Of a DNA stretch of 33,208 bases, positions 2,607 through 25,589 are shown one piece after another (position 1 is the first letter of the stretch; every line of letters starts with the position of its first letter). Made by a program: the position numbers and the translations under genes. The notes under the pieces were generated by a model. It did no database searches. It was not told the origin of the DNA and worked only from the letters and a program-made list of their open reading frames with translations. Source of the DNA: a virus. Lineage: Duplodnaviria; Heunggongvirae; Uroviricota; Caudoviricetes. The stretch lies in the IMG/VR virus record IMGVR_UViG_2579778919_000008; one strand, written 5' to 3'.

Positions 2607-3178
2607 TATTCATTCTCCTGATATGCGAAGTAGCAAAATGTATGGGCTGGTTTGAGATCACGGAAGACGTCTTCAATAATCGGATCACCAAACGTTGTCA
2701 GGCGCTCACCTGCAGCTGAACTGCCTGAGCGAAAGCGATAGGATTGAGTTCCTGAGTTCTGAATATTGACGCGCCAGACCCAGATAATGTCTTCAACCCA
2801 GAGGCGATCACCGGCGCGGCCAACTCCCGCCCTGAAAGGTTGCGGTTCATCAATTGTGATGATGTAGCCAAGGTTGCTTGCCAACTGAGTAAAGTACGGA
2901 ATACTGAGACCACCGACTTCAGCCAGTTTAGCCAGTACACGCTGCTGGCGTTGCTGGTATGTCGCACCTTCAGCAGGAGTAAGGTCCAGGACGCGTTCCC
3001 AGTCATACAAAAGGCTGCGTGCATAAAATGGAGTAACTCCACCTTCAACAAGCCCTGCAGACGCATCGAGAGTCTCAAAAACACCTGATTCAGATCGCAA
3101 TGATGCATCAAGCAGAGGCTGGCCCGGGCTGTACGAAACAAGTGGCAGCAGACGATTTAACAGCGTGAAGTAGCTCAT
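2606..3178 (-). CDS. Baseplate/tail protein, Mu gp48-like (P2 gpI-like)
   Basis: 190 aa ORF between the baseplate J-like gene and the tail fibre gene, with start/stop overlaps to both neighbours; assignment by synteny and recollection. Confidence 0.6.
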
Positions 3179-4242
3179 AGCAGCTCTACCTCAACGTTTC
3201 CTAATCTGAGCCATTCGACTTTCGTGGCATCGATTATCGGTTGAATATTTGCCGATGGTGTAACGATGTCATAGTCGGTAATACCCGGAATTAGAGAAAT
3301 CAATGTCCCCGCCTGGCTGCGAATAAAAGCCACTCCAGGCTCTCGGCGCGAGTCATCGTCCTCCAGCGTTCCGGCGACAGCCTGTTTGGCTGCTGCGAGG
3401 GTGATGCCCTCCAGTGATACCTTCACGAGGACGTCAAATGTACGGATGACAGGCATGAGCACCAGCGTGTTTTTTGCTGTAACAGGCCGGACATCGTCAA
3501 TGTGAGCCTGCACCCTGTCGATCACATCCTGAGATGGCAGCCCACCTGTAGACGTGATCACAACATCAACGGTACCCGGCCCCCGCCGCAAAGGGTAAAC
3601 ATATGCGGCGGATACGCCTGATACCTCAAGCGCCCAGCGTTTGTAATCATATTTATTGCCGCCTGCAGGAGGTCGGCGGATGATTTCAAGCAGACGAGCA
3701 AGCAGCTCTGCATCCGTTTCCTCATCTGTTCCGCCAGTCATCAGGCCTACTGTCACTGTGCTGTCAAACCCATCAGGTGTTGTGGTCAGTGTGGCCGATG
3801 TGACGGAAGTGGTGTTACCAGTGGTTCCGGCCAGAGAAGATACTGCGTTTACCGATGATTTTCCATCTGACCCGACAATAATATCTTCGGTTGTTGTCCA
3901 CGAAACACTGTCGCGTTTGAACACAAGACCGGCAGCGGCCACCGCTCCTGGTTCGCCGGTAAACGTGGCAGGCCCGGAGGCGCTATTGGCTGCTTTTTTG
4001 CTTAAACCACGTAAACGGGCGTGCAGATAGAGGAATTCCGAATCAGCAGTATCCGGAAAGATCTGACGGACTATCCATCCCTGATTCTGATAAAGCCCCT
4101 CGGCAACACTGGCTACACTCGATGCCCGGATGTACCAGTCGCTGTCCGGGCCCAGCGTATCATCTGACAACTGCAGGAGATTTTTGATATCCCGCAGAAT
4201 GTCAGTGCGTATTTGCGCGGCATTTTTGGTAATGAATGGCAT
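3175..4242 (-). CDS. Baseplate J-like protein (Mu gp47-like)
   Basis: 355 aa; position and size; N-terminus MPFITKNAAQIRTDILRDIK typical of baseplate J family by recollection. Confidence 0.7.
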   Translation of the reverse strand: MPFITKNAAQIRTDILRDIKNLLQLSDDTLGPDSDWYIRASSVASVAEGLYQNQGWIVRQIFPDTADSEFLYLHARLRGLSKKAANSASGPATFTGEPGAVAAAGLVFKRDSVSWTTTEDIIVGSDGKSSVNAVSSLAGTTGNTTSVTSATLTTTPDGFDSTVTVGLMTGGTDEETDAELLARLLEIIRRPPAGGNKYDYKRWALEVSGVSAAYVYPLRRGPGTVDVVITSTGGLPSQDVIDRVQAHIDDVRPVTAKNTLVLMPVIRTFDVLVKVSLEGITLAAAKQAVAGTLEDDDSRREPGVAFIRSQAGTLISLIPGITDYDIVTPSANIQPIIDATKVEWLRLGNVEVELL

Positions 4243-4592
4243 CAGCTGACCTTAACCGGATATTTCCAGGTCTGCGGCGTTCCGCTCGCAGACGTGACGG
4301 TGATATGAAGCAGCATCCAGCCTTTTTGCCAGTGCTCTGCAGTAACGGAAATGGACTGGGCGCGACCGTCGTCAATAATCGGTTGCAGGGCCTGCCGCGA
4401 ATACTGCACTGCGAGTTGTTGAACGCGAGACACATCCTTTTCGCGGCGGAGTGTATGCAAAAGAGAGCCCAGAGTTGGATCAGCCCACCATGAGCCAAGG
4501 GGCGTCATCAGCCGTAAGTAGACGGCATTCGCTAAAGAGTCTGAGCTGTCGCCGGTATAATCGCCGGTCGTTGGATCAATCAACATTTCCAT
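4242..4592 (-). CDS. Small baseplate protein (Mu gp46-like, gpW/gp25-type)
   Basis: 116 aa ORF preceding baseplate J; 1-nt stop/start overlap (TGATG) with the downstream gene; first gene after the only sizeable intergenic gap in the tail module. Confidence 0.6.
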   Translation of the reverse strand: MEMLIDPTTGDYTGDSSDSLANAVYLRLMTPLGSWWADPTLGSLLHTLRREKDVSRVQQLAVQYSRQALQPIIDDGRAQSISVTAEHWQKGWMLLHITVTSASGTPQTWKYPVKVS

Positions 4593-4627
4593 GCCGTAAT
4601 ACTACCGGCATGGAAATTTAAATTATC

Positions 4628-4645
4628 GGTGAAGGGGTTCAGTGG
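4628..4645 (-). promoter_or_regulatory. Copy of conserved 18-bp motif (plus strand GGTGAAGGGGTTCAGTGG), candidate late-promoter activator site upstream of the gp46-like gene
   Basis: Identical 18-mer also at 24630..24647 upstream of lys and 16/18 match at 16473..16490 upstream of I; on the transcribed strand it is followed directly by GATAAT. Confidence 0.45.
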
Positions 4646-4681
4646 GTATTGCTTTTGAAGGAGAACTTACGTTACCACAAA

Positions 4682-5287
4682 TTACATTTGCTGATTAGGT
4701 TTCTGCGTTGTGCCTGCATCACCGCCGTGGTCGTGGTCGTGACCGTCATAAGTTTCACGCATGGTGTTCAGCGTAGAATTGCCGTCAGCGACTTCATTAC
4801 TGCCTTTCAGCAATGGTGTATCAAAATCTGCCCGCTCTGAGGCTGTGGTTTTATACGTTTTGGTATTAACAATATGTTGTTCGGTATTCACCGTGTGCTT
4901 TTTAGTATTAACGATATATTCATCGCAGTTTACTTCAATTATTTTTCCGCGCTTCAGAATAATGTTGCTTCCTTCAGCCGAATAAATGGCAAGCTCACCA
5001 CTTTTCAGGCTCTTTAGCCTGTATGCAGCGTGTTCCGTGGCAATCACCACGCTATGACTGGTGCGCCCGTTAAGCGGGAGCACAATGGCTTTAGTCCCCC
5101 TGGGCGGGTTGGATGTAAAACCGTACTGCTGAAACATCTCCACATCCTGCAGAGACTCAGTGGCCAGACCTTTACCCTGAATGGTCTGAATATCACCGCC
5201 GCTGTTAACCCTTATTAAAACGCCCCTGAAGGCCTTTCTGATACGGTTTAACGCCGTGTTAATACGAGAGTCAATTTTGTTCCACAT
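4682..5287 (-). CDS. Baseplate central spike / assembly protein V-like (Mu gp45-like)
   Basis: 201 aa; position between P-like and gp46-like genes; C-terminal repeats (YIVNTKKHTVNTEQHIVNTKTY) and His/Asp-rich tip DGHDHDHGGD. Confidence 0.65.
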   Translation of the reverse strand: MWNKIDSRINTALNRIRKAFRGVLIRVNSGGDIQTIQGKGLATESLQDVEMFQQYGFTSNPPRGTKAIVLPLNGRTSHSVVIATEHAAYRLKSLKSGELAIYSAEGSNIILKRGKIIEVNCDEYIVNTKKHTVNTEQHIVNTKTYKTTASERADFDTPLLKGSNEVADGNSTLNTMRETYDGHDHDHGGDAGTTQKPNQQM

Positions 5288-6488
5288 CGATAATCTCCAG
5301 CTCTTTATTTACTTTGGCGCGACGCTTACGTGATTTGCGTTTTTTCGGATAAGCATCCGGTATCCATATTCCATCCTCTTTGAGCCGCAGGGTGGTAATG
5401 GTGTTGTCTGGACGACCACCTGAAAACTCTCTTCCCATGAGGAAGTAAATGTCATCAATGCCATGCGGCTCGCTTCGGACACGAATACGCTGGCCCGGTT
5501 GCCATAACTGACCGTTCTCCATGCGATGGCCTTTAACAATTACTGTCAGATCAAACCCGTTCAGACGGGCGTCAGCCATGGCCTTTCTCGCGCGATAATC
5601 AACCTGCGCCTGATTATCAGCATCACCAGCAACCATAATCTGCGGACGATAGAAAGGTACGGTACTGTCGCGAACGGTACTACGTAAGCCATGAAAGCCA
5701 TTCTCTGCAGAGCCGGTGCTGTCATAAATTGCGTCGGCATCATCATCGTCTTCAGCCTCAGCGCTCTGATCATCAACGTCAATAACTTCCAGTCTTCCTG
5801 ACTTTTTCCCCTGGCCGTGTCCCTGTGCCAGCATTGTCAGTTCAGAGAACGCACCGGTAATGGATGACCGGTCACTGAGATCGAGGACATTATTTCCCCG
5901 ACCGTCACGATTCAGAACAAGCGTGGCTACAGGGTCTTTTGTGTAATCCGGCCCTCCAATTACCAGCGTGCCATCTGGCTCAAACCATGGCCATAACCCG
6001 CGTGCAGCAGCTGCACGCTCAAGGGTATCCCACGCACGTTCTCCGGGCTCCACGCTGACCTTGTCATTACGCAGGGATGATTCAGCCTCGATGCGGATGT
6101 TCGTTATCCCCAGCGGTCTGACAACCTGGGCGATCACCTCTTCAAGACTGAGCTGGCGGGAGGTAAAAACGGGTGAAGCGCAGTCAACAAGCACGGCTGC
6201 ACCATCGCGACCGGAAAGAGATAAAGAAACCTGCTGACGGGATACCCGGCGCTGAACCACATCCACCCGACCGGACATGACAACATCATTACCCACCCTG
6301 ACCAGCACCGGCACACCACGTTTAATGGCCGGAGGGAAAATACCATCAGGCAGCCCAAGCGTTACGCTCCATGCATCGGCGGGGATTAGAAAGTCGGAGT
6401 CAATCTGATAGCGGCTCCATGCACTATGGATTTTGCCATCAATAACAAGGCTCACTGTATTCTGCGAATTTTTATCTTGAGTAGGCAT
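5271..6488 (-). CDS. Tail/baseplate protein P (Mu gp44-like, P2 gpD-like)
   Basis: 405 aa ORF between N-like and spike genes; overlapping start/stop with both neighbours. Confidence 0.65.
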   Translation of the reverse strand: MPTQDKNSQNTVSLVIDGKIHSAWSRYQIDSDFLIPADAWSVTLGLPDGIFPPAIKRGVPVLVRVGNDVVMSGRVDVVQRRVSRQQVSLSLSGRDGAAVLVDCASPVFTSRQLSLEEVIAQVVRPLGITNIRIEAESSLRNDKVSVEPGERAWDTLERAAAARGLWPWFEPDGTLVIGGPDYTKDPVATLVLNRDGRGNNVLDLSDRSSITGAFSELTMLAQGHGQGKKSGRLEVIDVDDQSAEAEDDDDADAIYDSTGSAENGFHGLRSTVRDSTVPFYRPQIMVAGDADNQAQVDYRARKAMADARLNGFDLTVIVKGHRMENGQLWQPGQRIRVRSEPHGIDDIYFLMGREFSGGRPDNTITTLRLKEDGIWIPDAYPKKRKSRKRRAKVNKELEIIDVEQN

Positions 6489-23700: not shown

Positions 23701-23929
23701 CGCGCACCTCTCTGGCTCGTTTGATGGACATGTGTTTTGATGCCTGGCTCTGTGCCACCCATGCGCCCAGATAAGTGAAATACAGCTCACCCGGTGTTTC
23801 GGGACGGGTTACGGTGATCCAGACCAGCACGAAGGAACTGACCAGGAAGGCCAGAAAAACGATGGTATCTGACGTTGAGAGACGACCTGTGGCCGGGTTC
23901 GTCACCAGATCGCGCAGAGAGATCGTCAT
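23666..23929 (-). CDS. Holin-like small membrane protein
   Basis: 87 aa with one hydrophobic helix; start overlaps the endolysin stop (ATGA); position in lysis cassette. Confidence 0.4.
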   Translation of the reverse strand: MTISLRDLVTNPATGRLSTSDTIVFLAFLVSSFVLVWITVTRPETPGELYFTYLGAWVAQSQASKHMSIKRAREVRDVGSSPENPEG

Positions 23930-24570
23930 AGCGCCGCCTTAGCGACATTCAGCCGCGCCACACGGTCGGCCTGACCTTCAGCCGGAGGGTTGATACGGCG
24001 GGTGACAGCCAGAAAATCGCCTTTGTCCGCCAGCTCGTTGCAGCCATTTGCCTTCCAGTACCAGGCAGCGCTGCGGGCTGCGTTGAGATATTCCAGTAAC
24101 AAATCGGGATTAGCGATGAGATCGAGGCCCAGCGCCTTACCGCAAAGGAGGTAATTATTGCGCAGAGTAATCTGAATCAGGCCACGCCCGCGAAAGCGCC
24201 AGCCATCGCCTGACGCTTCATTACCGTTACCACCCTGATTTGCGTAAACATAATTCGCCATTTTTTCAGAGTTACGGGTATAGCGGCGGGCAAATTCAAT
24301 CTCACTGGGCTCGATAATACGATTCTTATTGAGATCGAAGTCGCTGCGGAAAATACGCGCCACGCGCTCAGCATCTGAATAATAGAGATTTTCACTGAGC
24401 CGACTGAAACCCGCGCTCTCATGGCCGGTTTGAGCAATAAAGGCGGCAAGCCGGGCGGGCGTATTAATCTGGAATTCAGCGGTGGCTTTACTGAATGGTT
24501 CAAACCAGCGTTGCGCCATCACTGGCGAAAGGCCTGCTGCTCGCTGAAATTGTGGGAGTGTTAAAAGCAT
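23926..24570 (-). CDS. Endolysin, glycoside hydrolase family 19-like
   Basis: 214 aa; motifs FIAQTGHESAGFSRLSENLYYS and GDGWRFRGRGLIQIT match GH19-type phage endolysins by recollection. Confidence 0.8.
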   Translation of the reverse strand: MLLTLPQFQRAAGLSPVMAQRWFEPFSKATAEFQINTPARLAAFIAQTGHESAGFSRLSENLYYSDAERVARIFRSDFDLNKNRIIEPSEIEFARRYTRNSEKMANYVYANQGGNGNEASGDGWRFRGRGLIQITLRNNYLLCGKALGLDLIANPDLLLEYLNAARSAAWYWKANGCNELADKGDFLAVTRRINPPAEGQADRVARLNVAKAAL

Positions 24571-24629
24571 AACGCCATCCGGTTAAAAAGGGATGGCGTC
24601 AGTATTTCATCGAGTTAGGTGAATAATCA

Positions 24630-24647
24630 GGTGAAGGGGTTCAGTGG
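24630..24647 (-). promoter_or_regulatory. Copy of conserved 18-bp motif (plus strand GGTGAAGGGGTTCAGTGG), candidate late promoter upstream of lys
   Basis: Identical to the 4628..4645 copy; on the transcribed strand followed directly by TGATTAT; a 9-bp-stem hairpin lies between it and the lys ATG. Confidence 0.45.
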
Positions 24648-24648
24648 T

Positions 24649-25155
24649 TTATTGAGTAACATCAATTATCTCTACATCGTCACTTTCTTCAATATGCGAG
24701 GGAGGTGGGTTGTTAATTGCAAATTTACATTCCTTACCCTGTTTTATGTATGATTCACCCTGCGCATTCACAGTCTTAACATTATCAGTTTTTAATGAAG
24801 ATAGCCTTGCCATCCAATATGAGTAAGCAGTTGCTGGTAACGTAGCACAAGAGCTAAAAGGTGTAGGGTTTAAAAGAAGATTCTCCCCATACAATTTTTT
24901 CGCATCCTCATCAAGGAGGAGGAAATGACGACTCACTGCAACAACTTCAGGTGTAAGATATCCTAGGTTCTTGTACATATCAAAAACAGCAGTTGCACCC
25001 ATTAAAGTGCTCTGCGTTTCATTAAATATTCTTTTGGTTTCCTCAAGTTGATTTTTATAAGTTTCAACTGCTTTTGTATTGGGTACTGTTTTTGCTACTG
25101 CAGTAGTACTAAATACCACCAAGAAAAATGCCATATATCTCATTGCATTACACAT
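24649..25155 (-). CDS. AT-rich moron encoding a secreted/periplasmic protein of unknown function
   Basis: 168 aa with N-terminal signal peptide (FFLVVFSTTAVA-KT); markedly lower GC than flanking phage genes; start overlaps the mor stop (TAATG). Confidence 0.55.
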   Translation of the reverse strand: MCNAMRYMAFFLVVFSTTAVAKTVPNTKAVETYKNQLEETKRIFNETQSTLMGATAVFDMYKNLGYLTPEVVAVSRHFLLLDEDAKKLYGENLLLNPTPFSSCATLPATAYSYWMARLSSLKTDNVKTVNAQGESYIKQGKECKFAINNPPPSHIEESDDVEIIDVTQ

Positions 25156-25589
25156 TAGAATAATTTTCCTTGACTGTTACAACCTTTGTTTTTCTGCTGT
25201 GCAAGAAGTTCCCACGCAAAGCGATCACTGAATCCATACTTAGGGCAAAGAAAGGTCATGGCCATAAGAGAGGACGAACCCTGCTCACGCACCTCGGCGA
25301 ACTCGGCGAGAAAGCGACGATTACGTAATTCTCGAAGGGCACGATCACAGCGGGGTAAATAGAGGACTTCGCCGCCAAAATTCTTGATGAGTAATTGGGT
25401 TTTCTCATCGCCGATAGTATCGCGCAGGAGGGCTGCGCGGCTGGCCCCCATAGCGCGGAGGCCTTTACCTATCGGGAACGTGGTGCCACCAAAAGCAGAA
25501 AGAAGCTGCTCGGTCGCCGGGAAGCCTATCAGGTCAGCTATTTGTATCACTGCTGACGGCAGCAGCTCTGTTACCTGTTCCAGATTCAT
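25155..25589 (-). CDS. mor: Mor/C-family transcriptional activator
   Basis: Start at internal Met with GGGAG RBS; C-terminal signature GGEVLYLPR...RNRRFLAEF resembles the Mor/C GGxQVYIP motif. Confidence 0.65.
   Translation of the reverse strand: MNLEQVTELLPSAVIQIADLIGFPATEQLLSAFGGTTFPIGKGLRAMGASRAALLRDTIGDEKTQLLIKNFGGEVLYLPRCDRALRELRNRRFLAEFAEVREQGSSSLMAMTFLCPKYGFSDRFAWELLAQQKNKGCNSQGKLF

Follow-up and report, generated by a model that had tools for sequence, protein, structure and literature searches.

Gene order around the gp45-gp46 gap

Every long open reading frame of the window, by which we mean the whole stretch of 33,208 nucleotides that was analysed, lies on the - strand. These long ORFs are those of a Mu-like myovirus prophage, and the genes that could be assigned are listed in Table 1 together with the promoter features described below. 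The nearest isolated phages were Klebsiella phage ST405-OXA48phi1.1, Haemophilus phage SuMu, and Mannheimia phage 3927AP2; relatives of these three were found in enterics, Neisseriales, Pseudomonas, and Desulfovibrio. Mu gp46 was too distant to be recovered by the homologue search.

The gp45-like and gp46-like genes of the window are separated by 89 nt (4593..4681), whereas in Mu gp45 and gp46 overlap without a gap. Most related lineages also have a gp45-gp46 gap, of about 46-100 nt, and the few gap-less lineages carry a GGGAG Shine-Dalgarno sequence ahead of gp46 instead. An earlier note on this DNA had described the gap as the only sizeable one in the tail module, which turned out to be incorrect, as a second stretch of 134 nt (9969..10102) also lacks a listed major ORF; we suspect this stretch to be the tail-chaperone frameshift region. 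The gp45-like gene is predicted to be the last gene of the upstream operon and the gp46-like gene the first of an operon for the baseplate and tail fibre.

Table 1. Genes and promoter features of the window (positions are those of the whole stretch; arms are given in the RNA sense)
Feature	Position	Strand	Remark
Transposase-sized ORF, 685 aa	high-coordinate end	-	assigned by size and position only
B-sized ORF, 297 aa	high-coordinate end	-	assigned by size and position only
Mor/C-family late transcriptional activator gene	25155..25589	-	Pfam Mor, E 1.4e-8; PHROG 836, E 1.4e-39
Third late promoter, upstream of endolysin	24568..24647	-	box, -10, both arms, ATG
lys box	24630-24647	-	exact copy of the 18-mer
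lys -10, AATACT	24601-24606	-	predicted
lys 5' arm, GACGCCATCC	24591-24600	-	holds predicted +1 near 24594
lys 3' arm, GGATGGCGT	24572-24580	-	abuts ATG
lys ATG	24568-24570	-	endolysin start
GH19 endolysin (lys)	23926..24570	-	Pfam and PHROG matches
Late promoter upstream of protease I	16434..16490	-	same design as gp46
I box	16473-16490	-	2 mismatches to the 18-mer
I arm, GGTGCCG	16450-16456	-	one mismatch in the window's pair
I -10, TATCGT	16444-16449	-	predicted
I arm, CGACACC	16437-16443	-	ATG adjoins
I ATG	16434-16436	-	base 45 from dyad centre
Protease I	15321..16436	-	Pfam and PHROG matches
P/gp44	5271..6488	-	Pfam and PHROG matches
gp45-like baseplate spike	4682..5287	-	Pfam Phage_Mu_Gp45
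gp46 activator box, CCACTGAACCCCTTCACC	4628..4645	-	dyad TGAA-N4-TTCA, centre between 4636 and 4635, predicted -43.5
gp46 5' arm, ATTTCCATGCCG	4606..4617	-	promoter positions about -25 to -14, upstream of predicted start
gp46 -10, TAGTAT	4599..4604	-	predicted; in hairpin loop
gp46 3' arm, CGGCATGGAAAT	4585..4596	-	discriminator, ATG and codon 2; positions about -4 to +8
gp46 ATG	4590..4592	-	A at 4592 is the predicted +1
gp46-like baseplate wedge, 116 aa	4242..4592	-	Pfam GP46, E 7e-20; PHROG 180, baseplate wedge
Baseplate J	3175..4242	-	Pfam and PHROG matches

A late-promoter-like element ahead of gp46

The 18-bp motif that had been noticed in the gap is present and is one of three copies in the same orientation, the other two being an exact copy upstream of lys and a copy with two mismatches upstream of I; 0.04 copies were expected by chance. 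In the window, CTGAA-N4-TTCA occurs at these three box sites only, each of them on the coding (-) strand and ahead of lys, I, or gp46, and no box was found ahead of the P homologue. Relatives keep the box in the corresponding gap. Klebsiella phage ST405-OXA48phi1.1 has it at the three matching positions, ahead of lys, I, and gp46, and some distant lineages have the perfect palindrome CTGAAGCTCTTCAG as their box. The Mor-family protein of the window is presumed to bind the box. We also tried to align the box to the Mu sequence ATAACCCC, which would move the dyad centre 11 nt further upstream, and rejected this alignment because distant lineages keep TGAA as well as TTCA, the two half-sites.

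A consensus scan detected no sigma-70 -35/-10 pair in the gp45-gp46 gap. At bases 32-37 from the dyad centre, -10-like hexamers are present at all three sites, TAGTAT at gp46, TATCGT at I, and AATACT at lys. The hexamers are weak, with 3-5 of 6 consensus positions matched. We scored the best hexamer in 26 independent lineages in which the dyad was recognisable, and found that its last base was 37 nt from the dyad centre in 18 of them and 38 nt in 7. This spacing puts the dyad centre at -43.5 or -44.5, a geometry that is measured from the predicted -10, so that every position hangs on that hexamer. In 52 of 57 lineages a hexamer of the form nAnnnT ends about 7-9 nt ahead of the start codon, as against 0-9 for other offsets. 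Another hexamer, GATAAT at 4620-4625, was rejected as the -10, as it is not conserved and the dyad would then sit at about -20.

For Mu C, a 16-bp dyad centred at -43.5 overlaps the -35 region of promoters that have a -10 and no -35 element (PMC2582627). The element ahead of gp46 resembles the late promoters that depend on Mu C (Plys, PI, PP, and Pmom) in both the position of its dyad and its -10 without a -35, and the window is further like Mu in having a Mor/C-family activator and several copies of the box at the heads of the lysis, head, and tail operons. The box itself is unlike that of Mu C: it reads TGAA-N4-TTCA (CACTGAACCCCTTCA) here, whereas the Mu oligonucleotides contain ...CATAACCCC... 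and CATAA(C/T)CCC, and the activator of the window, a distant relative, could barely be aligned with Mu C. As far as these sequences tell, the specificity of the box is different from that of Mu C while the architecture is alike.

The place of the tail promoter also differs. The earlier note had stated that the Mu late promoter lies upstream of P, and this agrees with the PP oligonucleotide, which falls within gene N at a point about 330 nt upstream of P. Because the window has no box before P and Mu PP is inside N, the operon boundary is shifted relative to Mu, with the late-promoter-like element standing in the gap ahead of gp46, as the earlier note had anticipated for a promoter at this site. 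We consider that 4585-4645 (-) is very probably the core of a Mor/C-type activator-dependent late promoter.

The inverted repeat over the gp46 start codon

The hairpin had been said to follow the motif immediately, but 11 nt separate the two. Read on the + strand, the repeat consists of TTTCCATGCCG (4586-4596), the loop TAATACTAC (4597-4605), and CGGCATGGAAA (4606-4616). The sequence is thus the 11-bp perfect repeat with a 9-nt loop that was originally described, and A4585:T4617 forms a 12th pair, giving a perfect 12-bp repeat at 4585-4617; the arms grow to 19 nt once two mismatches are allowed. The gp46 ATG was correctly placed inside one arm, the 3' arm, where it appears as CAT at 4590-4592, and a further in-frame ATG of gp46 is found at 4586-4584. 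With loops of 3-12 nt allowed, the 33-kb window holds no further perfect inverted repeat of 11 bp or more. In dinucleotide shuffles the mean number of repeats of at least 11 bp was 0.06, and 4 of 100 shuffles contained at least one.

We then considered the kinds of element that had been proposed for this hairpin. No U tract follows the stem, which is followed by AUGUUGAUUGAU, and a terminator scan of the gp45-gp46 gap called nothing and did not list the stem, which argues against the terminator element that had been suggested. A classical terminator was rejected for either strand, as the sense strand has no U tract and relatives do not keep the T-rich run that the window has on its + strand. 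Rfam 15 covariance models gave no match in 4300-4900 on both strands at E values up to 1, and a known RNA family was rejected for the hairpin on this basis. As for RNA processing, the stems were judged by eye to be short for an RNase III or RNase P site, with no supporting feature seen, and no processing signal could be shown at the hairpin.

The predicted start of gp46 and I mRNA

The gp46 start codon has its A at a distance of 44-47 nt from the dyad centre, and the spacing of the -10 to the start codon was seen in about 50 related lineages. The start codon is ATG in 56 of 57 lineages, the exception being Klebsiella phage L002 with GTG, and in the relative L001 PGAP annotates the same gp46 start. 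C occupies -1 in 44 of the 57 lineages and A occupies +1 in 56. This is the pyrimidine-purine pattern that RNA polymerase favours at transcription starts. Neither gp46 nor I has a Shine-Dalgarno sequence ahead of it, and their anti-Shine-Dalgarno pairing is among the weakest in the window, with duplex energies of -3.2 kcal/mol for gp46 and -2.8 kcal/mol for I, whereas most other genes of the window reach -6 to -11 kcal/mol. RNA that begins at the gp46 AUG folds no better than shuffled sequences (z +0.52), and its 5' A is unpaired with a probability of 0.99.

Given the spacing, the C at -1 and A at +1, the weak anti-Shine-Dalgarno pairing, the GGGAG of lineages that have no gap, and the unstructured 5' end, we predict that gp46 and I each head a leaderless late mRNA. 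As gp46 has no Shine-Dalgarno sequence, its mRNA is, in our estimate, probably leaderless. A similar case is lambda cI transcribed from PRM, which likewise has a 5' AUG, no Shine-Dalgarno sequence, near-exclusive use of AUG, and an unstructured 5' end; it differs in that the start here is predicted and that the promoter is activator-dependent, with long late operons behind it where PRM has a repressor gene.

Two observations speak against a leaderless mRNA. One is the GTG start of L002, as GTG performs poorly on leaderless mRNA in E. coli. The other is that gene I of Mu has a leader with a Shine-Dalgarno sequence: the Mu PI oligonucleotide and the genome put the start about 24 nt upstream of the I ATG, with AGGA between them, a position that is approximate because the 3' end of the published oligonucleotide does not match the reference genome exactly. 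Here the predicted +1 falls on the start codon at both I and gp46, whereas the leaders of Mu I and lys are about 20-25 nt long and carry a Shine-Dalgarno-like sequence, and leaderless late genes are not a general Mu trait, given the leader and AGGA of Mu I.

Conservation and covariation of the stem

In 63 non-redundant upstream regions we tried every symmetry centre and recorded perfect stems of at least 6 bp. In 23 of the 63 lineages such stems had their centre 9-10 nt upstream of the ATG's A; this centre falls on the -10 hexamer, and hardly any other centre gives such stems. The arms diverge while the pairing stays, as in TTTCCATGCCG/CGGCATGGAAA, CCATGCCCCGC/GCGGGGCATGG, and ATCCATGCAGC/GCTGCATGGAT. 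In L002 the arms are GTCCAC../..GTGGAC, so that CAC of the 5' arm pairs with the GTG start codon.

RNAalifold, applied to an ungapped alignment of 18 sequences, returned 9 pairs, 6 of which were changed on both sides. When we counted the 12 pairs of the stem, 86.6% of the cells were paired, compared with 31-42% for slid partners, and double changes were present in 8 of 12 pairs; none of 500 shuffles reached the observed values. The sequences of the alignment and of the pair count were picked for having the stem, and the unselected evidence is the centre scan. The compensatory changes indicate that pairing in the gp46 stem is under selection.

Internal mismatches, scored symmetrically, comprised 7 G.T on the sense strand (G.U in RNA), 2 C.A, and 2 others; with the I set added, G.U against A.C was 9:3 (p about 0.07). 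The excess of G.U hints at a structure in sense-strand RNA. The repeat was absent or weak in about half of the lineages that keep the promoter spacing, and is therefore not essential. In some lineages alternating (CG)n palindromes stand beside the -10 instead.

Predicted folding of read-through RNA and of RNA starting at the AUG

We compared predicted folding of RNA that enters from gp45 with that of RNA that starts at the gp46 AUG. In the RNA from gp45, the stem dominates the ensemble and is present in the centroid structure. The probability that the gp46 AUG of the window is unpaired was 0.00 in the read-through RNA, which holds both arms, and 0.68 in the RNA from the predicted start. The earlier note had proposed folding of the 5' leader as a check; the AUG is indeed buried when both arms are present, but not in the RNA that the promoter is predicted to make. 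The relatives showed the same tendency: over 57 lineages the median probability was 0.14 in read-through RNA, 0.64 in RNA from the AUG onward, and 0.37 with a shuffled upstream sequence, and the read-through value was below 0.1 in 27 of the 57.

Because the 5' arm lies upstream of the predicted +1, RNA made from the promoter itself would lack the stem, and only read-through RNA would fold. The start-codon sequestration that had been proposed as translational control is thus upheld in one respect, as the AUG is buried and the pairing appears selected, but it would not operate in the promoter's own leader, since the loop holds the -10 and transcription is predicted to start on the A of the ATG. 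That the stem masks the AUG only in read-through RNA is suggested by this modelling, and we judge the case for it to be evenly balanced.

The protease I and endolysin promoters

In relatives, the I promoter has perfect GGTGCCG/CGGCACC arms around the hexamer followed by the ATG, and compensated variants were GGTGCTG/CAGCACC, GCTGA/TCAGC, and TGCTGC/GCAGCA. At lys the 5' arm coincides with the discriminator/+1 region, for example in GACGCCATCC..GGATGGCGT, CTGACACCAC..GTGGTGTCAG, and GACACCA..TGGTGTC, and this design is kept in relatives with compensatory changes. The region upstream of the lys ATG was less accessible in read-through RNA. Predicted masking was modest both at the window's own I promoter and at lys.

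The window and its relatives agree in where the predicted +1 is found at gp46, I, and lys: it is either flanked by the two arms or part of the 5' arm. With this placement in all three classes, masking of read-through RNA would cover every one of them, whereas a model in which the -10 sits in a DNA loop fails at lys. Masking makes plain sense at lys, since the activator operon enters the lys box without a terminator and premature translation of endolysin would be harmful. For gp46, what is gained by shielding a late operon against read-through from another late operon is less obvious.

Other explanations of the repeat

The hairpin might instead form the 3' boundary of the upstream operon, an explanation that we regard as unlikely. 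It would act as a non-canonical terminator, or as an exonuclease block after Rho-dependent termination in the untranslated gp46 region, and would stabilise the I-to-gp45 transcript, with masking of the AUG being secondary. Relatives from Neisseria and Desulfovibrio piger carry canonical terminators (hairpin and T run) in the same gap, so that the gp46 stem may also, or instead, mark the upstream 3' end, and the lineages with these terminators have a weak -10-centred repeat or none. In addition, the terminator scan gave only weak, short-stemmed - strand candidates from the I promoter to the gap, and the stem is stable in the read-through RNA, in whose centroid structure it is found. However, none of the enteric or Chromobacterium lineages has a U tract, and the scan did not call the stem. 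A boundary function would also leave unexplained why the pairing tracks the start codon (GTG with CAC) and why at lys the hairpin comes downstream of the promoter's own -10, with the ATG adjoining it. The boundary function is partly compatible with masking of read-through RNA and does not exclude it.

We think it quite improbable that the repeat acts in DNA, through melting of the -10 or supercoil sensitivity, through cruciform-like extrusion, or as the operator of a dimeric protein. In favour of a DNA element, the repeats of gp46 and I have the -10 at their centre, which is 9 to 10.5 nt upstream of the ATG's A, and the (CG)n palindromes seen in some lineages lie next to the -10. PMC4461284 reports that Mu C acts partly by unwinding promoter DNA, which would also be in keeping with such a role. 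On the other hand, the lys repeat is off-centre from its -10 and spans +1 to the ATG, and most mismatches are G.T when read in the sense strand and would turn into A.C in the opposite strand of a cruciform. Moreover, arms of 7-12 bp with loops of 6-9 nt are poor cruciform formers. An operator is further disfavoured because arm sequences vary from phage to phage and also within one phage, whose three promoters have unlike arms; for the latter reason an operator for a shared protein was rejected.

In a special form of this explanation, to which we assign only a slight chance, an extruded hairpin or cruciform would present the -10 in single-stranded form to sigma-70, making these Mor-type late promoters dependent on supercoiling or replication. 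Dependence on replication would be in line with a recent report on Mu C, according to which the protein requires the beta sliding clamp (PMC12867686). If true, an extruded -10 would represent a new class of structured promoter for the host polymerase.

It is very unlikely that transcription starts upstream of the hairpin and that the stem, lying in the gp46 5' leader, controls translation of the gene or serves as an RNA processing site: GATAAT does follow the box directly, and the AUG is fully sequestered in any RNA holding both arms, but such a start would have to be upstream of 4617, where no conserved -10 exists, GATAAT is not conserved in relatives, the dyad would lie at about -20, where PMC2582627 reports no Mor/C activator, the loop holds the conserved nAnnnT, whose distance of 37-38 nt to the dyad is constant, no Shine-Dalgarno sequence is present to be unmasked, and Rfam gave no match.

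A proposed mechanism and its relation to known systems

We favour masking of read-through RNA. From the repeat, the copies of the box and their geometry, the conservation and compensatory changes, and the predicted folding, we infer how the activator would bind, where exactly transcription would start, and how a leaderless mRNA and a masking hairpin would act together. The Mor-family activator of the phage would bind the dyad TGAA-N4-TTCA, centred at about -43.5, and sigma-70 RNA polymerase would use the weak -10 TAGTAT in the hairpin loop. Transcription would begin at, or 1-2 nt from, the A of the gp46 ATG, producing a leaderless mRNA with a free 5' AUG. As the 5' arm of the repeat (-25..-14) precedes this start, RNA from the promoter itself could not form the hairpin, which would form only in RNA reading through from the upstream late operon. 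There it would pair the AUG, which has no Shine-Dalgarno sequence, and codon 2, and gp46 would not be translated from such RNA. Expression of gp46 and the genes coupled to it would then depend on initiation at their own promoter, and the arrangement would work as a filter for the origin of the transcript. For this account as a whole, including the late promoter, the leaderless start, and the hairpin masking the read-through AUG, we see about equal chances of its being right or wrong.

The closest parallel is in insertion sequences. The promoter of IS10 starts transcription between the arms of an inverted repeat, and outside transcripts alone hold both arms, which sequesters the translation start. 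This fold-back inhibition of IS10/Tn10 (and IS50) is attributed to Davis, Simons & Kleckner (1985, Cell 43:379), as cited in PMC13181058. The gp46 promoter is like IS10 in that the predicted start lies between the arms and the 3' arm covers the translation initiation region. It is unlike IS10 in that the protected genes are late structural and lysis genes of a phage rather than a transposase, the outside RNA would come from the phage's own upstream operons, the gp46 and I mRNAs are predicted to be leaderless, and at these two promoters the -10 forms the loop; moreover, the arrangement is here deduced from sequence.

Mu itself offers a second comparison. In the com/mom operon, a stem in mom's own mRNA sequesters the start codon, and the Com protein opens it. 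The stem at gp46 is similar in sequestering a start codon in a Mu-type late mRNA, but it is predicted to be absent from the gene's own mRNA. A full-text literature search found no account of late-promoter architecture or of leaderless late genes in SuMu-like phages, nor a description of the hairpin-promoter arrangement.

Should the prediction prove right, leaderless mRNAs would serve two of the three late operons in a widespread clade of Mu-like myoviruses. If true, hairpins placed across the promoters would allow only the RNA made from the activator-dependent promoter to be translated, which would account for the silence of lysis and structural genes on RNA reading through from early and middle operons in the absence of terminators, and a trick of insertion sequences would be extended to the control of phage late genes. 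Annotation of genomes in this clade would also gain rules for the activator box, for where the promoters lie, and for the true start codons.

Features adjoining the activator boxes in the window

Each of the three activator boxes in the window, the predicted Mor/C-type late-promoter sites (TGAA-N4-TTCA) that lie before lys, I and gp46, is directly preceded on its own strand by an A/T-rich, ATAA-like element. An element of this kind also occurs in relatives. The individual elements are listed in the table below; they could represent an extended activator contact or a UP-like contact. The second box (16473-16490) is overlapped by the final codons of an ORF resembling the P21 holin S family, which is situated between the G-like gene and the protease gene I and is distant from the endolysin gene. 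The region between the lys promoter box and the Mor-family activator gene contains a function-unknown ORF, for which a Pfam search gave no match. The stop codon of this ORF lies 2 nt from the lys box, leaving no terminator between the activator operon and lys.

In the tail module, we also noticed 134 nt without a listed major ORF between a 130-aa ORF (10103..10495) and the tape-measure gene, and we suspect that this stretch is where the tail assembly chaperone is extended by a frameshift.

Coordinates and strands of features in the window, in L015 and in phage Mu (L136)
Feature	Coordinates	Strand	Remark
ATAA-like element CAATAC	window 4646-4652	-	before gp46 box
Stretch without major ORF	window 9969-10102	-
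P21 holin S-like ORF, 72 aa	window 16470-16688	-	Pfam E 2e-8
ATAA-like element GATAAT	window 16491-16496	-	before I box
ATAA-like element AATAAA	window 24648-24654	-	before lys box
Function-unknown ORF, 168 aa	window 24649-25155	-	PHROG 29261
Dyad within terminator	L015 9950-10000
Mu PI inverted repeat	L136 9027-9050

The gp45-gp46 gap in related lineages, and the PI promoter of Mu

In L015 (Desulfovibrio piger), and also in L102 and L104, the activator dyad CTGAACAGCTTCCACC lies inside a terminator of canonical form (GGTGGAAGC..GCTTCCACC, then T8), and a single sequence seems to act both as an activator site for the next operon and as a terminator for the one upstream. The Neisseria lineages (L016, L024 and L109-L113) carry a canonical terminator about 65 nt upstream of the gp46 ATG. 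Their promoter region, about 20-35 nt upstream of gp46, contains GCCGTCTGAA, the Neisseria DNA uptake sequence; it forms one arm of a small hairpin that lies immediately upstream of CAAAAT, the predicted -10. In L017, L031, L033 and L034, palindromic and Z-DNA-prone tracts of alternating (CG)5-6, for example ACGCGCGCGCGCGT, were found about 13-26 nt upstream of gp46, where they adjoin the predicted -10 on its upstream side and stand in the place of the flanking inverted repeat.

The Snodgrassella lineages (L018, L020-L022, L027 and L115) have a perfectly palindromic box, CTGAAGCTCTTCAG, in the same gap, and gp46 is preceded by a leader of the conventional type, about 20 nt long, which carries a GGAG Shine-Dalgarno sequence, showing that the leaderless layout is not universal across the clade.

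The PI promoter of phage Mu contains a 7-bp inverted repeat, CTGCTCA..TGAGCAG, whose 5' arm extends approximately to the published start of transcription and whose 3' arm stands immediately ahead of the AGGA Shine-Dalgarno sequence of gene I. From these positions, the rule placing the start between the arms may extend to Mu.
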